Sequence record: NC_049954.1
Strand: one strand, 5' to 3'
Length of the DNA: 47,142 nucleotides
DNA from: Escherichia phage 2G7b
Part shown: positions 18,964-46,386 of the stretch, piece after piece
How the letters are laid out: the number at the start of each line of letters is the position of its first letter
Position numbering within the stretch: position 1 is the stretch's first letter
Notes under the pieces: generated by a model
Seen by the model: only the letters and a program-made list of their open reading frames with translations
What the model was told of the DNA's origin: nothing
Databases searched by the model: none
Made by a program: the position numbers and the translations under genes

Positions 18964-19563
18964 ATGCGTAAATTATGTGCTGTTATTCTGTCCGCAGTAG
19001 TCTGGCTGGTTGCCGCTGGTACGCCAGCGAGCGCAGCAGAGCATCAGTCCACACTAAGCGCCGGGTATCTTCAGACCCATACTGATATGCCAGGCAGTGA
19101 TGACCTGAAGGGCATTAACGTGAAATACCGTTATGAATTTACGGACACGCTGGGGCTGGTGACGTCATTCAGTTATGCCAATGCCAAAGATGAGCAAAGA
19201 ACGCATTACAGCGATACCCGCTGGCATGAAGATTCAGTGCGTAACCGCTGGTTCAGCATGATGGCGGGGCCATCTGTACGCGTGAATGAATGGTTCAGTG
19301 CTTATGCGATGGCAGGTGTGGCTTACAGCCGTGTTTCGACGTTCTCCGGGGATTATCTCCGCGTAACTGACAACAAGGGGAAAACGCACGATGTGCTGAC
19401 CGGAAGTGATGACGATCGCCACAGCAACACGTCTCTGGCGTGGGGAGCTGGCGTGCAGTTTAACCCGACCGAATCCGTGGCCATTGATATTGCTTATGAA
19501 GGCTCCGGCAGTGGCGACTGGCGCACTGACGGTTTCATCGTGGGTGTCGGTTATAAGTTCTGA
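18964..19563 (+). CDS. lom: Lom-like outer membrane protein (Ail/Lom/PagC family)
   Basis: 199-aa ORF with signal peptide MRKLCAVILSAVVWLVAAGTPASA and C-terminus ..AIDIAYEGSGSGDWRTDGFIVGVGYKF as in lambda Lom; N-terminal two thirds diverged. Confidence 0.85.
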   Translation: MRKLCAVILSAVVWLVAAGTPASAAEHQSTLSAGYLQTHTDMPGSDDLKGINVKYRYEFTDTLGLVTSFSYANAKDEQRTHYSDTRWHEDSVRNRWFSMMAGPSVRVNEWFSAYAMAGVAYSRVSTFSGDYLRVTDNKGKTHDVLTGSDDDRHSNTSLAWGAGVQFNPTESVAIDIAYEGSGSGDWRTDGFIVGVGYKF

Positions 19564-19590
19564 TTAGCCAGGTAACACAGTGTTATGACA

Positions 19591-19616
19591 GCCCGCCGGT
19601 TCAGGCGGGCTTTTTT
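19591..19616 (+). terminator. rho-independent terminator after lom (GCCCGCC-ggttca-GGCGGGC + T6)
   Basis: Strong GC hairpin followed by TTTTTT. Confidence 0.75.
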
Positions 19617-19627
19617 GTGGAGTGGAT

Positions 19628-22003
19628 ATGGCAGCAGTAAAAATCTCAGGTGTGCTGAAAGATGGTGCGGGAAAACCAATACAGAACTGCACTATTCAAC
19701 TGAAGGCAAAGCGTAACAGCACCACGGTACTGGTGAACACGGTGGCTTCTGAAAATCCGGATGAAGCCGGACGTTACAGCATGGATGTTGAGTATGGCCA
19801 GTACAGCGTCACCCTGCTGGTTGAAGGTTTTCCGCCTTCACATGCCGGGACCATTACCGTCTATGAAGGCTCCAGACCAGGTACGCTGAATGATTTTCTC
19901 GGTGCCATGACGGAAGATGATGTCATGCCGGAGGCATTGCGTCGTTTTGAGGAAATGGTGGAAGAAGCGGCACGCAACGCTGAAGCCGCCTCTCAGAGCG
20001 CAGCGGCGGCAAAGAAATCCGAAACTGCAGCGGCATCATCGAAGAACGCGGCGAAAACCTCAGAAACGAATGCAGCTAATAGTGCACAGGCGGCAGCGAC
20101 CTCAAAGACTGCATCGGCAAACTCCGCGACAGCAGCCAAAAAATCAGAAACCAACGCGAAAAATAGCGAGACAGCCGCAAAGACGAGCGAAACCAACGCA
20201 AAGTCCAGCCAGACGGCAGCGAAAACCAGCGAAACGAATGCCAAAGCCAGTGAAACTGCGGCAAAAAACAGCCAGGTTGCAGCAGCCCAAATCGAGAGCG
20301 CGGCAGCCGGTTCTGCGACTTCAGCAGCTGGATCAGCAACTGCTGCGGCTAACAGCCAGAAAGCTGCGAAGACGAGTGAAACTAACGCAAAGTTCAGCCA
20401 GACGGCAGCGAAGACCAGCGAAACGAATGCCAAAGCCAGCGAAACTGCGGCGAAAAACAGTCAGGATGCAGCAGCCCAAAGCGAGAGTGCTGCAGCTGGT
20501 TCTGCAAGCGCGGCGGCTGCTTCTGCCACTGCATCAGCCAACAGTCAAAAAGCAGCAAAAACCAGTGAAACCAATGCAAAGACAAGCGAGACTGCAGCGG
20601 CGAACTCGGCGAAAGCATCGGCAGCAAGCCAGACAGCAGCTAAAGCAAGTGAAGACGCAGCCAGAGAGTATGCAAGTCAGGCAGCAGAGCCGTATAAATA
20701 TGTCTTACAGCCGCTGCCTGATGTGTGGATACCATTTAACGATTCGCTGGATATGATTACGGGCTTTTCGCCATCATATAAAAAAATTGTTATTGGTGAC
20801 GATGAAATAACGATGCCTGGCGACAAGATTGTTAAGTTTAAACGTGCATCGAAAGCAACCTATATTAACAAATCTGGTGTGCTGACAGAGGCTGCCATTG
20901 ACGAGCCACGATTTGAACGTGATGGCCTGCTTATTGAGGGGCAAAGAACAAACTACATGCTCAATTCGGAAAGCCCTGCAAGTTGGGGGCGATCATCAAA
21001 TATGGATGTGCCCGAAACAGGGACGGATAATTTTGGTTTTACCTATGGAAAGTTTGTCTGCAACGATTCTCTGATTGGGCAAACCTCAGCCATTAATATG
21101 GCATCAATTGCTGCAACAAAGTCAGTTGATGTCTCAGGCGATAATAAACACGTGACAACCTCATGTCGTTTTAAAACAGAACTGCAGGTAAGGTTGCGTA
21201 TCCGGTTTGATAAATATGACGGTAGCACAACAACTTTTCTTGGTGATGCGTATATTGATACACAAACGCTTGAAATTAATATGACAGGCGGTGCTGCCTC
21301 AAGAATTACAGCGAGAGTCAGAAAGGACGAAGCTACCGGATGGATTTTTGCAGAGGCAACAATTCAGGCAATTGATGGGGAGTTAAAAATAGGCTCTCAG
21401 ATACAGTATTCTCCTAAGCAGAGCGGGGCAACCGTATCTGGTGACTATATTTATCTGGCCACCCCACAAGTAGAAGATGGGCCTTGTGTATCATCTTTTA
21501 TTATATCAGGAGCGACGGCGGCGACCCGCGCAAGCGATATAGTTACAGTTCCAATTAAGAATAATCTTTATAATCTTCCTTTTACGGTTCTTTGTGAGGT
21601 ACATAAGAACTGGTATAAAACGCCAAATGCAGCGCCACGTGTTTTTGATACCGGCGGTCATCAAACCGGAGCGGCTATTATTCTTGGCTTCGGTCGTTCA
21701 ACAGATTACGACGGATTTCCTTATTGCGATATTGGAGGAGCTAACAGACGGGTAAACGAAAACGCATCGCTTGAAAAAATGGTTATGGGGATGCGTGTAA
21801 AGTCAGAGCAGTCTACGTGCTCAGTAAGTAACGGGCATATATCCAGCGAAACAAAAACCACATGGTCCTGTATTCAGAACACCGCAATTATCCGTATTGG
21901 AGGCCAGACTACAGCCGGGTTACGTCATTTATTTGGTCATGTCAGGAATTTTAGAATATGGCACAAGGCATTGACTGATGCTCAGGTGGGGGAGTCAATC
22001 TAA
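19628..22003 (+). CDS. stf: side tail fibre protein, mosaic: lambda Stf-like N-terminal half with repeat region, non-lambda C-terminal domain
   Basis: N-terminus MAAVKISGVLKDGAGKPIQNCTIQLKAKRNST.. and KTSETNAK/SETAAK repeats match lambda Stf; C-terminal ~400 aa (..YKYVLQPLPDVWIPFNDSLDMITGF.. to ..RNFRIWHKALTDAQVGESI) does not. Confidence 0.8.
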   Translation: MAAVKISGVLKDGAGKPIQNCTIQLKAKRNSTTVLVNTVASENPDEAGRYSMDVEYGQYSVTLLVEGFPPSHAGTITVYEGSRPGTLNDFLGAMTEDDVMPEALRRFEEMVEEAARNAEAASQSAAAAKKSETAAASSKNAAKTSETNAANSAQAAATSKTASANSATAAKKSETNAKNSETAAKTSETNAKSSQTAAKTSETNAKASETAAKNSQVAAAQIESAAAGSATSAAGSATAAANSQKAAKTSETNAKFSQTAAKTSETNAKASETAAKNSQDAAAQSESAAAGSASAAAASATASANSQKAAKTSETNAKTSETAAANSAKASAASQTAAKASEDAAREYASQAAEPYKYVLQPLPDVWIPFNDSLDMITGFSPSYKKIVIGDDEITMPGDKIVKFKRASKATYINKSGVLTEAAIDEPRFERDGLLIEGQRTNYMLNSESPASWGRSSNMDVPETGTDNFGFTYGKFVCNDSLIGQTSAINMASIAATKSVDVSGDNKHVTTSCRFKTELQVRLRIRFDKYDGSTTTFLGDAYIDTQTLEINMTGGAASRITARVRKDEATGWIFAEATIQAIDGELKIGSQIQYSPKQSGATVSGDYIYLATPQVEDGPCVSSFIISGATAATRASDIVTVPIKNNLYNLPFTVLCEVHKNWYKTPNAAPRVFDTGGHQTGAAIILGFGRSTDYDGFPYCDIGGANRRVNENASLEKMVMGMRVKSEQSTCSVSNGHISSETKTTWSCIQNTAIIRIGGQTTAGLRHLFGHVRNFRIWHKALTDAQVGESI

Positions 22004-45106: not shown

Positions 45107-45603
45107 TGCCTCCATCATTACGAAAAGCCGTTGCTGCTGCTATTGGTGGCGGAGCAATTGCTATAGCATCAGTGTTAATCACTGGCCCAAGTGGTAACGA
45201 TGGTCTGGAAGGTGTCAGCTACATACCATACAAAGATATTGTTGGTGTATGGACTGTATGTCACGGGCATACAGGAAAAGACATCATGCTCGGTAAAACG
45301 TATACCAAAGCAGAATGCAAAGCCCTCCTGAATAAAGACCTTGCCACGGTCGCCAGACAAATTAACCCGTACATCAAAGTCGATATACCGGAAACAATGC
45401 GCGGCGCTCTTTACTCATTCGTTTACAACGTGGGTGCTGGCAATTTCAGAACATCGACGCTTCTTCGCAAAATAAACCAGGGCGATATCAAAGGCGCATG
45501 TGATCAGCTACGTCGCTGGACATATGCTGGCGGTAAGCAATGGAAAGGTCTCATGACTCGTCGTGAGATTGAGCGTGAAATCTGTTTGTGGGGTCAGCAA
45601 TGA
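45106..45603 (+). CDS. R: SAR endolysin (lysozyme with N-terminal signal-anchor-release domain, R21 type)
   Basis: 165-aa ORF with Gly/Ala-rich weakly hydrophobic N-terminus [20 protein letters not shown] followed by lysozyme-like domain. Confidence 0.85.
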
Positions 45604-46061
45604 ACAGAGTAACCGCGATTATCTCCGCTCTGGTTATCTGCATCATCGTCTGCCTGTCATGGGCTGTTAATCATTACCGTGATAACGCCATTACCTACAA
45701 AGCCCAGCGCGACAAAAATGCCAGAGAACTGAAGCTGGCGAACGCGGCAATTACTGACATGCAGATGCGTCAGCGTGATGTTGCTGCGCTCGATGCAAAA
45801 TACACGAAGGAGTTAGCTGATGCGAAAGCTGAAAATGATGCTCTGCGTGATGATGTTGCCGCTGGTCGTCGTCGGTTGCACATCAAAGCAGTCTGTCAGT
45901 CAGTGCGTGAAGCCACCACCGCCTCCGGCGTGGATAATGCAGCCTCCCCCCGACTGGCAGACACCGCTGAACGGGATTATTTCACCCTCAGAGAGAGGCT
46001 GATCACTATGCAAAAACAACTGGAAGGAACCCAGAAGTATATTAATGAGCAGTGCAGATAG
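45600..46061 (+). CDS. Rz: i-spanin Rz
   Basis: Start [29 protein letters not shown].. (N-terminal TM then coiled coil); start overlaps R stop. Confidence 0.85.
45820..46002 (+). CDS. Rz1: o-spanin Rz1 lipoprotein, embedded in +1 frame within Rz
   Basis: 60-aa [23 protein letters not shown]|TSKQ.. with lipobox and proline-rich mature region. Confidence 0.85.
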
Positions 46062-46092
46062 AGCTGCCCATATCGATGGGCAACTCATGCAA

Positions 46093-46386
46093 TTATTGTG
46101 AGCAATACACACGCGCTTCCAGCGGAGTATAAATGCCTAAAGTAATAAAACCGAGAAATCCATTTACGAATGTTTGCTGGGTTTCTGTTTTAACAACATT
46201 TTCTGCGCCGCCACAAATTTTGGCTGCATCAACAGTTTTCTCCTGTCCAATTCCCGAAACGAAGAAATGATGGGTGATGGTTTCCTTTGGTGTTACTGCT
46301 GTCGGTTTGTTTCCAACAGTAAACGTCTGTTGAGCACATCCTGTAATAAGCATTGCCAGAGCGGCAGAAAACAACATTTTTTTCAT
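46093..46386 (-). CDS. bor: Bor lipoprotein (serum resistance)
   Basis: Start MKKMLFSAALAMLITGC|AQQTFTVGNK.. with lipobox; tool ORF starts further upstream. Confidence 0.9.
   Translation of the reverse strand: MKKMLFSAALAMLITGCAQQTFTVGNKPTAVTPKETITHHFFVSGIGQEKTVDAAKICGGAENVVKTETQQTFVNGFLGFITLGIYTPLEARVYCSQ

Follow-up and report, generated by a model that had tools for sequence, protein, structure and literature searches.

Outer-membrane cargo genes of Escherichia phage 2G7b, a complete lambdoid phage with the integration system of the cryptic prophage DLP12

The cryptic prophage DLP12 of Escherichia coli K-12, which has been called the most prevalent E. coli prophage (PMC10057817), is integrated at argU and reads intD ... 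nmpC, essD, rrrD, rzpD, borD ... ybcY, appY, ompT, with the gene for the outer-membrane protease OmpT located inside the prophage (PMC5723341, PMC2588501). Phage lambda carries lom 3' of J and bor 3' of Rz, but it has neither ompT nor a porin gene and uses another integrase and attachment site. Self-contained cargo genes of this kind, or morons, number about four in each of the lambda-like phages of the infant gut and mostly encode membrane proteins (PMC6969025), and they have been defined experimentally in Perceval, a lambda-like prophage of E. coli LF82. Here we describe Escherichia phage 2G7b (NC_049954.1), whose 47,142 nucleotides were analysed as a single stretch (the window), and its genes for four envelope proteins: Lom, OmpT, a porin and the lipoprotein Bor. 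We consider it probable (at about 0.82) that this phage belongs to the lineage that gave rise to DLP12, that it integrates into argU, and that it carries its cargo genes in separate mosaic modules, the products of which would change the surface of the lysogen.

The window starts with the lambda left cohesive end (GGGCGGCGACCT...) and stops with the lambda right end (...CCGACAGGTTACG), and its map of open reading frames, from nu1 and A to J, corresponds to that of lambda gene by gene. Because both ends are identical to the lambda cos ends and the gene order parallels the lambda genome plan, the 47,142 bp constitute a complete cos-to-cos lambdoid genome, and the phage is apparently a functional, lambda-like temperate one. 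The integrase gene (28178–29341, minus strand) is of the IntD (DLP12) type, and its product is at least 99.7% identical across all eight OmpT-carrying phages that we examined. When the window is compared by BLAST with the DLP12 region of K-12, two aligned pieces overlap at 28115–28164, one of them entering attL and the other attR; because this overlap is the 3' part of argU that both DLP12 ends have in common (a 50-bp core), we assign it as the core of the phage attachment site attP. It carries the 3' end of the tRNA-Arg(UCU) gene argU, and ARAGORN finds no complete tRNA at attP. An IntD-type integrase and the 3' end of argU within attP are the two features that define the DLP12-type, argU-integrating phages, and judged by its sequence 2G7b has both.

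DLP12 aligns collinearly to the window as a heavily deleted copy, in which the retained pieces are int–xis with a fragment of exo, P–ren, rusA–Q–nmpC–lysis–bor, cos–nu1, tfa–ybcY, and ompT–attR. Attachment site and gene order are shared, and the proteins are closely related, with identities of 99.5% for the integrase, 98.7% for OmpT (4 of 317 residues differ), 91.6% for the porin, 89.7% for Bor (against BorD) and 99% for YbcY. Unlike DLP12, 2G7b has all of the head, tail, replication and immunity genes and is without insertion sequences; lom is present and the porin gene is unbroken, whereas K-12 nmpC is split by IS5, and at the position of K-12 appY it has instead a gene for a hydrolase resembling Hip1 of Mycobacterium tuberculosis. 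The closest sequence to the window is a prophage of E. coli strain WP2-W18-ESBL-08, about 99% identical and lying between argU and envY; within the phage collection, of which the window is not itself a record, the top OmpT match is 99.7% identical.

A first-pass annotation of this sequence had named lom, ompT, porin and bor, and all four are present and full-length where it placed them, with Pfam E-values from 4e-30 to 2e-151. The export signals that it reported can likewise be read in the translations, as signal peptides in Lom, OmpT and the porin and as the lipobox LITGC in Bor, and the three barrel proteins each end in phenylalanine.

The ompT gene (26742–27695, minus strand) encodes an omptin outer-membrane protease of 317 amino acids (aa) that scores 435 bits with Pfam Omptin PF01278 (1e-130; cut-off 22.6) and 706 bits with NCBIfam NF008222 (cut-off 537). 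The translation shows a signal peptide MRAKLLGIVLTTPIAISSFA/ST and a C-terminal F, and the catalytic residues Asp83, Asp85, Asp210 and His212 (mature numbering) are all kept; proteolysis at dibasic sites, dependent on lipopolysaccharide, is predicted for this omptin. The resemblance to K-12 extends beyond the reading frame. Upstream, the match to K-12 is 100% over the 173 nt before the ATG and continues unbroken through 20 nt of the gene itself, and this stretch includes a promoter-like site, 5' leader and pairing region (27676–27762, minus strand), with TTGACT, a 16-nt spacer and AAAAAT at 27762–27735. The small RNAs OmrA and OmrB pair with a segment of ompT from -15 to +20 (PMC2588501), and that segment falls within the identical stretch. 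Downstream, a GC-rich terminator-like hairpin directly follows the stop codon (26686–26723, minus strand; CCCCGGUGG...CCCCGGGG, then AAUUUGUUU, read as UUUGUUU in the transcript), and the K-12 homology extends through it. In K-12 ompT is expressed from DLP12 (PMC2588501; PMC12890032); a temperature of 37 °C strongly induces OmpT in K-12 and in enteropathogenic and uropathogenic E. coli, and it up-regulates both OmpT and nmpC in strain CFT073 (PMC12890032). Because the upstream region is identical to the active one of K-12, expression of ompT in 2G7b lysogens is well supported, as far as sequence can predict it. Between attP and the ompT promoter, at 28003–28037 (minus strand) and in the position of lambda sib/tI, are two overlapping hairpin and T-run sites, which in the prophage would shield ompT from transcription entering from envY.

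The porin gene (43220–44302, minus strand) encodes a general porin of the NmpC/Lc/OmpD type as a 360-aa precursor (Pfam Porin_1 PF00267, 2e-151, 504.5 bits against a cut-off of 23.7; NCBIfam 'porin OmpC', 521 against 484), and OmpC structures match it at about 1e-137. In phage PA-2, the Lc porin accompanies loss of the OmpC receptor in lysogens. The precursor starts MKKLTV, has a signal peptide ending at AQA/AE and a C-terminus ...VYQF. A longer reading frame of 380 aa (43220–44362) was considered and rejected, as K-12 nmpC is annotated from MKKLTV and a ribosome-binding site (AAAGGG) is found only before that start; translation almost certainly begins at the internal MKKLTV codon at 44302, and the 20 codons upstream are leader. 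Besides its similarity to K-12 NmpC, the protein is 94% identical to the porin of phage ev243 and 100% identical to NmpC of Perceval.

The gene lies between Q and the late promoter and lysis genes on the opposite strand, the same arrangement as quuD–nmpC–essD in DLP12. A late-promoter-like site at 44511–44539 with its terminator at 44729–44750 (44511–44750, plus strand) is in a region conserved with K-12, and because the porin gene is placed between Q and this site with its terminator, it falls outside the late transcript. On its 3' side is a structured region (43045–43215, minus strand; -54 kcal/mol, z = -5.1) that ends in a strong terminator (stem 43081–43064), and the 170 nt after the stop codon are 92.5% identical to the K-12 quuD–nmpC spacer. 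The small RNA IpeX is reported to lie in that spacer, and the structured region is probably the counterpart of IpeX of DLP12. IpeX is cited as targeting and repressing ompC (PMC3333887, PMC5745476); if the RNA is indeed encoded here, the porin locus would both add a porin and lower the host's own. An Rfam scan of the window for known RNAs, including IpeX and the lambda sib retroregulation site, matched neither of these; the single family above threshold was the lambda cIII thermoregulator (32890–32948, minus strand, 88.5 bits).

Perceval provides the closest point of reference for expression of this porin. Not only is the porin protein identical, but the Q–porin–holin DNA is 98.2% identical and Bor 97.9% identical, although Perceval has sitABCD instead of ompT in the attP-side region and is absent from the OmpT matches. 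Perceval NmpC is transcribed 10-fold above the prophage background in the LF82 lysogen, as determined by RNA-seq (PMC9928086). Because this NmpC is identical, porin expression in 2G7b lysogens is well supported by analogy.

The bor gene (46093–46386, minus strand), convergent with Rz, encodes a 97-aa outer-membrane lipoprotein of the Bor/Iss type (Pfam Lambda_Bor PF06291, 4e-30; 104 bits against a cut-off of 25; lipobox LITG/C), which is 90.7% identical to lambda Bor in the same genomic position. Its 360-nt upstream region is 56% identical to that of lambda, and the terminator candidate is weak. Lambda Bor is expressed in lysogens, and Perceval Bor is induced in Dulbecco's modified Eagle's medium (PMC9928086). 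The NCBI annotation pipeline PGAP names the Bor homologue 'Iss' in E. coli genomes.

The lom gene (18964–19563, plus strand) sits after J and ahead of the side tail fibre gene and encodes a 199-aa, 8-stranded outer-membrane barrel of the Ail/Lom family (Pfam PF06316 Ail_Lom, 6e-127; 421.5 bits against a cut-off of 23, with positions 1–199 of 199 covered). The signal peptide reads MRKLCAVILSAVVWLVAAGTPASA/AE (...PASA/AEHQ) and the C-terminus ...GYKF. Among PDB structures it matches lambda Lom (9wso) at 4.5e-50 and OmpX and Ail at about 1e-18, and its scores lie below the NCBIfam equivalog cut-offs for both Rck (121 bits against 258) and OmpX (105 against 176); judged by these models it is a member of the Ail/Lom family and an equivalog of neither Rck nor OmpX, and functional equivalence to Rck or Ail in complement resistance is not supported. 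The PDB entry 9wso (chain C) contains lambda Lom with two chains in the one entry, and may bear on what Lom binds. The initial description of this Lom as diverged holds with respect to lambda Lom, to which it is about 45–46% identical, but not more widely, as the allele class is common: 163 phage records are 80–90% identical to it, and identity is 87% with the Lom of ev243, 98% with that of PhiR46_1 and 100% with that of the WP2-W18-ESBL-08 prophage. As in lambda, hairpin terminators stand on either side of the gene. A terminator-like hairpin lies between J and lom (18915–18934, plus strand), where lambda has an equivalent hairpin and T-run, and a strong intrinsic terminator is found just 3' of lom (19590–19611, plus strand; an 8-pair stem with 7 GC pairs, then TTTTTTG); the lom–stf spacer is 82% identical to that of lambda.

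The four-gene set is rare among phages overall but normal within this lineage. In the phage collection, Lom-like proteins were found in 404 records, Bor in 194, this porin in 40 and OmpT in 12. Eight distinct OmpT-carrying phages were examined, and six of them (ev243, Turner, PhiR26_1, PhiR68_2, PhiR30_1 and PhiR29_1) have all four genes; Kati is without bor, and PhiR49_1 is without bor and has a broken lom. In the genome of ev243 (Nesevirus ev243, NC_049955, a species of the International Committee on Taxonomy of Viruses) all four products carry annotations, as Lom, OmpT, 'porin OmpC' and Bor, and the set is already known, annotated cargo of DLP12-type phages. The hydrolase gene is also carried by ev243, Turner, PhiR26_1, PhiR29_1 and PhiR30_1, whereas PhiR68_2 has appY instead; these ev243-type phages differ from 2G7b in Lom allele (86–87% identical), immunity region, J C-terminus and side tail fibres. 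Bacterial genomes give a similar picture: 3760 of 5426 complete E. coli genomes match the ompT region, 1221 of those with the hydrolase–ompT arrangement. Two of three argU prophages sampled (strains 2013C-4225 and OkiPb01698) carry porin, Bor, Lom, hydrolase and OmpT, and the third (EN-1077) has decayed to a remnant in which, as in K-12, porin, Bor and OmpT persist but the tail genes and lom are gone. PhiR68_2 and the OkiPb01698 prophage also carry emrE and ybcK, and PhiR68_2 additionally ybcL, ybcM and appY, as does DLP12; these two appear to represent the K-12 remnant in its intact state.

Across a span of 27 kb, each of the four genes has its own mosaic block with a different nearest relative. 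The attP-side block (methyltransferase, hydrolase, ompT and int) is 99.1% identical to ev243, while the early region and the Q–porin–lysis–bor block are 99.8–99.9% identical to PhiR11_1, which has no ompT. The closest Lom comes from a third phage, PhiR46_1, and phage ev207 has bor and an identical porin, with sitABCD in place of ompT. Because each gene travels with a different block and a different closest relative, the four look like independently acquired and reassorted cargo rather than one coordinated programme. Morons vary in presence and absence at the same position among related phages, as the partial sets among the relatives do here, and they differ in base composition from neighbouring genes: guanine-plus-cytosine (GC) content is 0.55–0.60 in the head and tail genes, 0.39–0.44 around ompT, porin and bor, and 0.51–0.53 in the lom region. 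Terminators are clear for lom, porin and hydrolase, plausible for ompT and weak for bor, and a promoter is supported for ompT alone.

Taken together with what is known of the relatives, these features suggest how the cargo would work. The prophage would occupy argU in the lysogen, ompT lying at its far right end beside envY exactly as in K-12, and the cargo genes would each be transcribed from a separate promoter that does not depend on the repressor. Rightward and late transcription run on the other strand from ompT, porin and bor, each of which therefore needs a promoter of its own. Lom, OmpT and the porin would be exported via Sec and then Bam, and Bor via Sec and then Lol to the outer membrane, where OmpT would cleave cationic antimicrobial peptides, Bor/Iss would aid serum survival, Ail/Lom-type proteins would contribute to adhesion or to complement evasion and serum survival, and the NmpC-type porin would replace or supplement OmpC and OmpF, altering permeability.

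The first-pass annotation had taken the neighbouring terminators or upstream regions of three of the genes to be consistent with expression from the prophage. The terminators of lom and porin, and the hairpin and K-12-identical upstream region of ompT, agree with this, although for bor there is only the weak candidate. Expression itself is supported by analogy with K-12 ompT, the Perceval porin, and lambda Lom and Bor; for bor and lom it is homology that suggests expression in lysogens. Lambda prophages are reported to express Lom constitutively, and its level to increase strongly late in infection (bioRxiv 10.1101/2025.02.28.640651). Several observations weigh against the reading of these genes as active in the lysogen. 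A promoter scan of the window gave no site above threshold for lom, porin or bor; lom starts only about 30 nt after a terminator, with no lysogenic promoter identifiable there, and its product is only 45% identical to lambda Lom, the protein with documented lysogenic expression. The nmpC genes of K-12 and E. coli B have been described as quiescent (PMC3333887 and references therein), and expression of the 2G7b porin may depend on conditions. What the genes are, that they are intact, where they lie, how the phage relates to DLP12 and that the set recurs are shown by the sequences; we infer expression in the lysogen of this particular phage, and the promoters acting there, from its relatives, and the phenotypes are extrapolated from homologues. 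The same points raise the prospect that some of the four genes are silent passengers, intact but unexpressed, and that the remodelling is largely nominal. We regard this as quite improbable, given that every reading frame is intact and retains its catalytic and export signals, that the identical porin is transcribed in LF82 and the ompT promoter region is identical to the active one of K-12, and that the genes are conserved in decayed prophages; by analogy with these relatives, absence of lysogenic expression of the four genes is unlikely.

Two further explanations concern whom the cargo serves and whether it forms a unit. The benefit could fall mainly to the phage, with surface proteins limiting how well the same phage or its competitors adsorb to lysogens and lysing cells, as superinfection exclusion or protection of progeny; Lom might block homotypic adsorption, for example, and the porin and IpeX-like RNA might lower the OmpC and OmpF used by side tail fibres. 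Expressed lambda Lom strongly blocks lambda-vir but not T7, and it rises sharply late in infection; at prophage level, however, it gives lysogens no protection in the laboratory (bioRxiv 10.1101/2025.02.28.640651). The targeting of ompC by IpeX fits such a role, as does the distance from lambda of both Lom (46%) and the last 150 aa of J (41%). The corresponding codons of J (18444–18896, plus strand) encode a segment about 41% identical to that of lambda and 40–59% identical to those of other OmpT-carrying phages, so the phage may use a receptor other than LamB, as far as sequence can suggest. Four J C-terminal types occur among twelve genomes compared, and pairwise identities of Lom and of the J C-terminus are correlated (Spearman 0.75), the direction that homotypic exclusion would predict, but the pairs are not independent and the genes are adjacent. 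The coupling is nevertheless loose, as Turner and PhiR30_1 have a different J C-terminus and yet a Lom 97% identical to that of ev243. Moreover, porin, bor and ompT are kept in decayed prophages incapable of making virions (K-12 and EN-1077), which argues for benefit to the host, and host-protective activities of OmpT and Bor/Iss are documented. A predominantly phage-directed benefit is therefore doubtful in our view, although it is not exclusive with the reading of the genes as host-modifying morons.

The first-pass annotation had gone further and seen an unusually heavy investment in remodelling the outer membrane, and in its strongest form this would be a coordinated programme with the genes selected as a set. 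All four products are outer-membrane proteins, a fifth exported enzyme is encoded beside ompT, and the porin locus probably also encodes an IpeX-like RNA lowering host porins; OmpT and this porin are rare across the phage collection (12 and 40 records), and the full set recurs in six of the eight OmpT-carrying phages. That recurrence also makes the set typical for its lineage, and the claim of an unusual burden does not survive comparison with the annotated ev243 genome, the other OmpT phages, the argU prophages, or DLP12 itself, which keeps three of the genes. Distances between the genes reach 27 kb, their four mosaic modules differ in nearest relative, no shared regulatory motif was found among them, and partial sets are common, with porin and bor but no ompT in ev207 and PhiR11_1, and ompT and porin without bor in Kati and PhiR49_1. 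We find a coordinated programme highly improbable, and prefer independently acquired morons on a phage of the DLP12 lineage.

The list of envelope cargo in the first-pass annotation, correct for its four members, omitted a fifth exported gene. The hydrolase gene (25071–26555, minus strand) adjoins ompT directly downstream, between ompT and a methyltransferase gene. Its 494-aa product is an alpha/beta serine hydrolase belonging to the TAP/Hip1 family, and has a signal peptide (MRKIITHFKVVLTLLLPVTVSA/QQ), an Abhydrolase_1 domain (PF00561) and a TAP-like C-terminal domain (PF08386). It matches the M. tuberculosis cell-envelope serine hydrolase Hip1 (Rv2224c/CaeA; PDB 7sfm) over its full length at 3.5e-51, and in the alignment the Ser, Asp and His motifs of Hip1 fall on AYSYGT, YDPTTP and GDGHT. 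The two proteins share these triad motifs and an export signal, but they are only distantly related in sequence, and the 2G7b enzyme is phage-borne in a Gram-negative host. A cluster of 4002 E. coli sequences, each named just 'alpha/beta hydrolase', has this very sequence as its representative; relatives about 50% identical occur in Budvicia, Salmonella and Serratia, and the protein also matches the PADLOC candidate family 'TAP-like protein'. The gene has its own AT-rich upstream spacer and is followed by a strong terminator with a 14-pair stem (25015–25050, minus strand). For the product of this exported cargo gene, protease or esterase activity and an envelope location are predicted; a literature search for studies of the E. 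coli Hip1-like protein found none that were relevant. It is tempting to view the hydrolase and OmpT as functional partners, or as acting in parallel, as two enzymes of the surface or periplasm encoded in a cassette where a phage that is still mobile has its attP end, and contributing to resistance against host peptides or immune recognition, or to phage exclusion, such that the 'chromosomal' ompT locus of E. coli is still being moved by active phages, but this is speculative and we think it unlikely to hold. The adjacent methyltransferase gene (23864–24532, minus strand; Pfam Methyltransf_12 and related families) is cytoplasmic cargo encoding a class I S-adenosylmethionine-dependent enzyme, and is the intact form of the K-12 pseudogene ybcY.

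Elsewhere in the window, the side-fibre region (19622–23331, plus strand) is unlike that of lambda, with a 793-aa fibre, a 93-aa open reading frame and a 345-aa fibre protein. The 793-aa fibre contains long Ala-rich, SETNAK-like repeats that give spurious open reading frames on both strands, and the 345-aa protein has an intramolecular chaperone (Peptidase_S74) domain. After the fibre genes, a 97-aa protein with three hydrophobic segments (23377–23670, plus strand; phrog_1443, unknown function) is probably located in the inner membrane and may be the product of another cargo gene. Between N and the repressor, in the position of lambda rexB and rexA, are two genes of GC about 0.35 for proteins of 163 and 285 aa (35481–35972 and 36010–36867, both minus strand). 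Neither has a Pfam-based NCBIfam or PADLOC match, the 285-aa protein matches phrog_23561 (unknown function), and the pair may be an exclusion or defence cassette. In the nin region, a gene at 40752–41339 (plus strand) matches PADLOC orphan DNA methyltransferase models (4.6e-20).

These comparisons give useful background when strains are annotated or their resistance to serum and peptides is studied, but what they show is established knowledge. The Hip1-like hydrolase, which stands beside ompT in about one-fifth of complete E. coli genomes, is the only part without prior study. 2G7b itself is a clean, intact example of the type of phage behind DLP12. It shows that the well-known E. coli genes ompT, nmpC and borD are cargo that viable phages continue to carry, and exactly these genes persist in decayed prophages.

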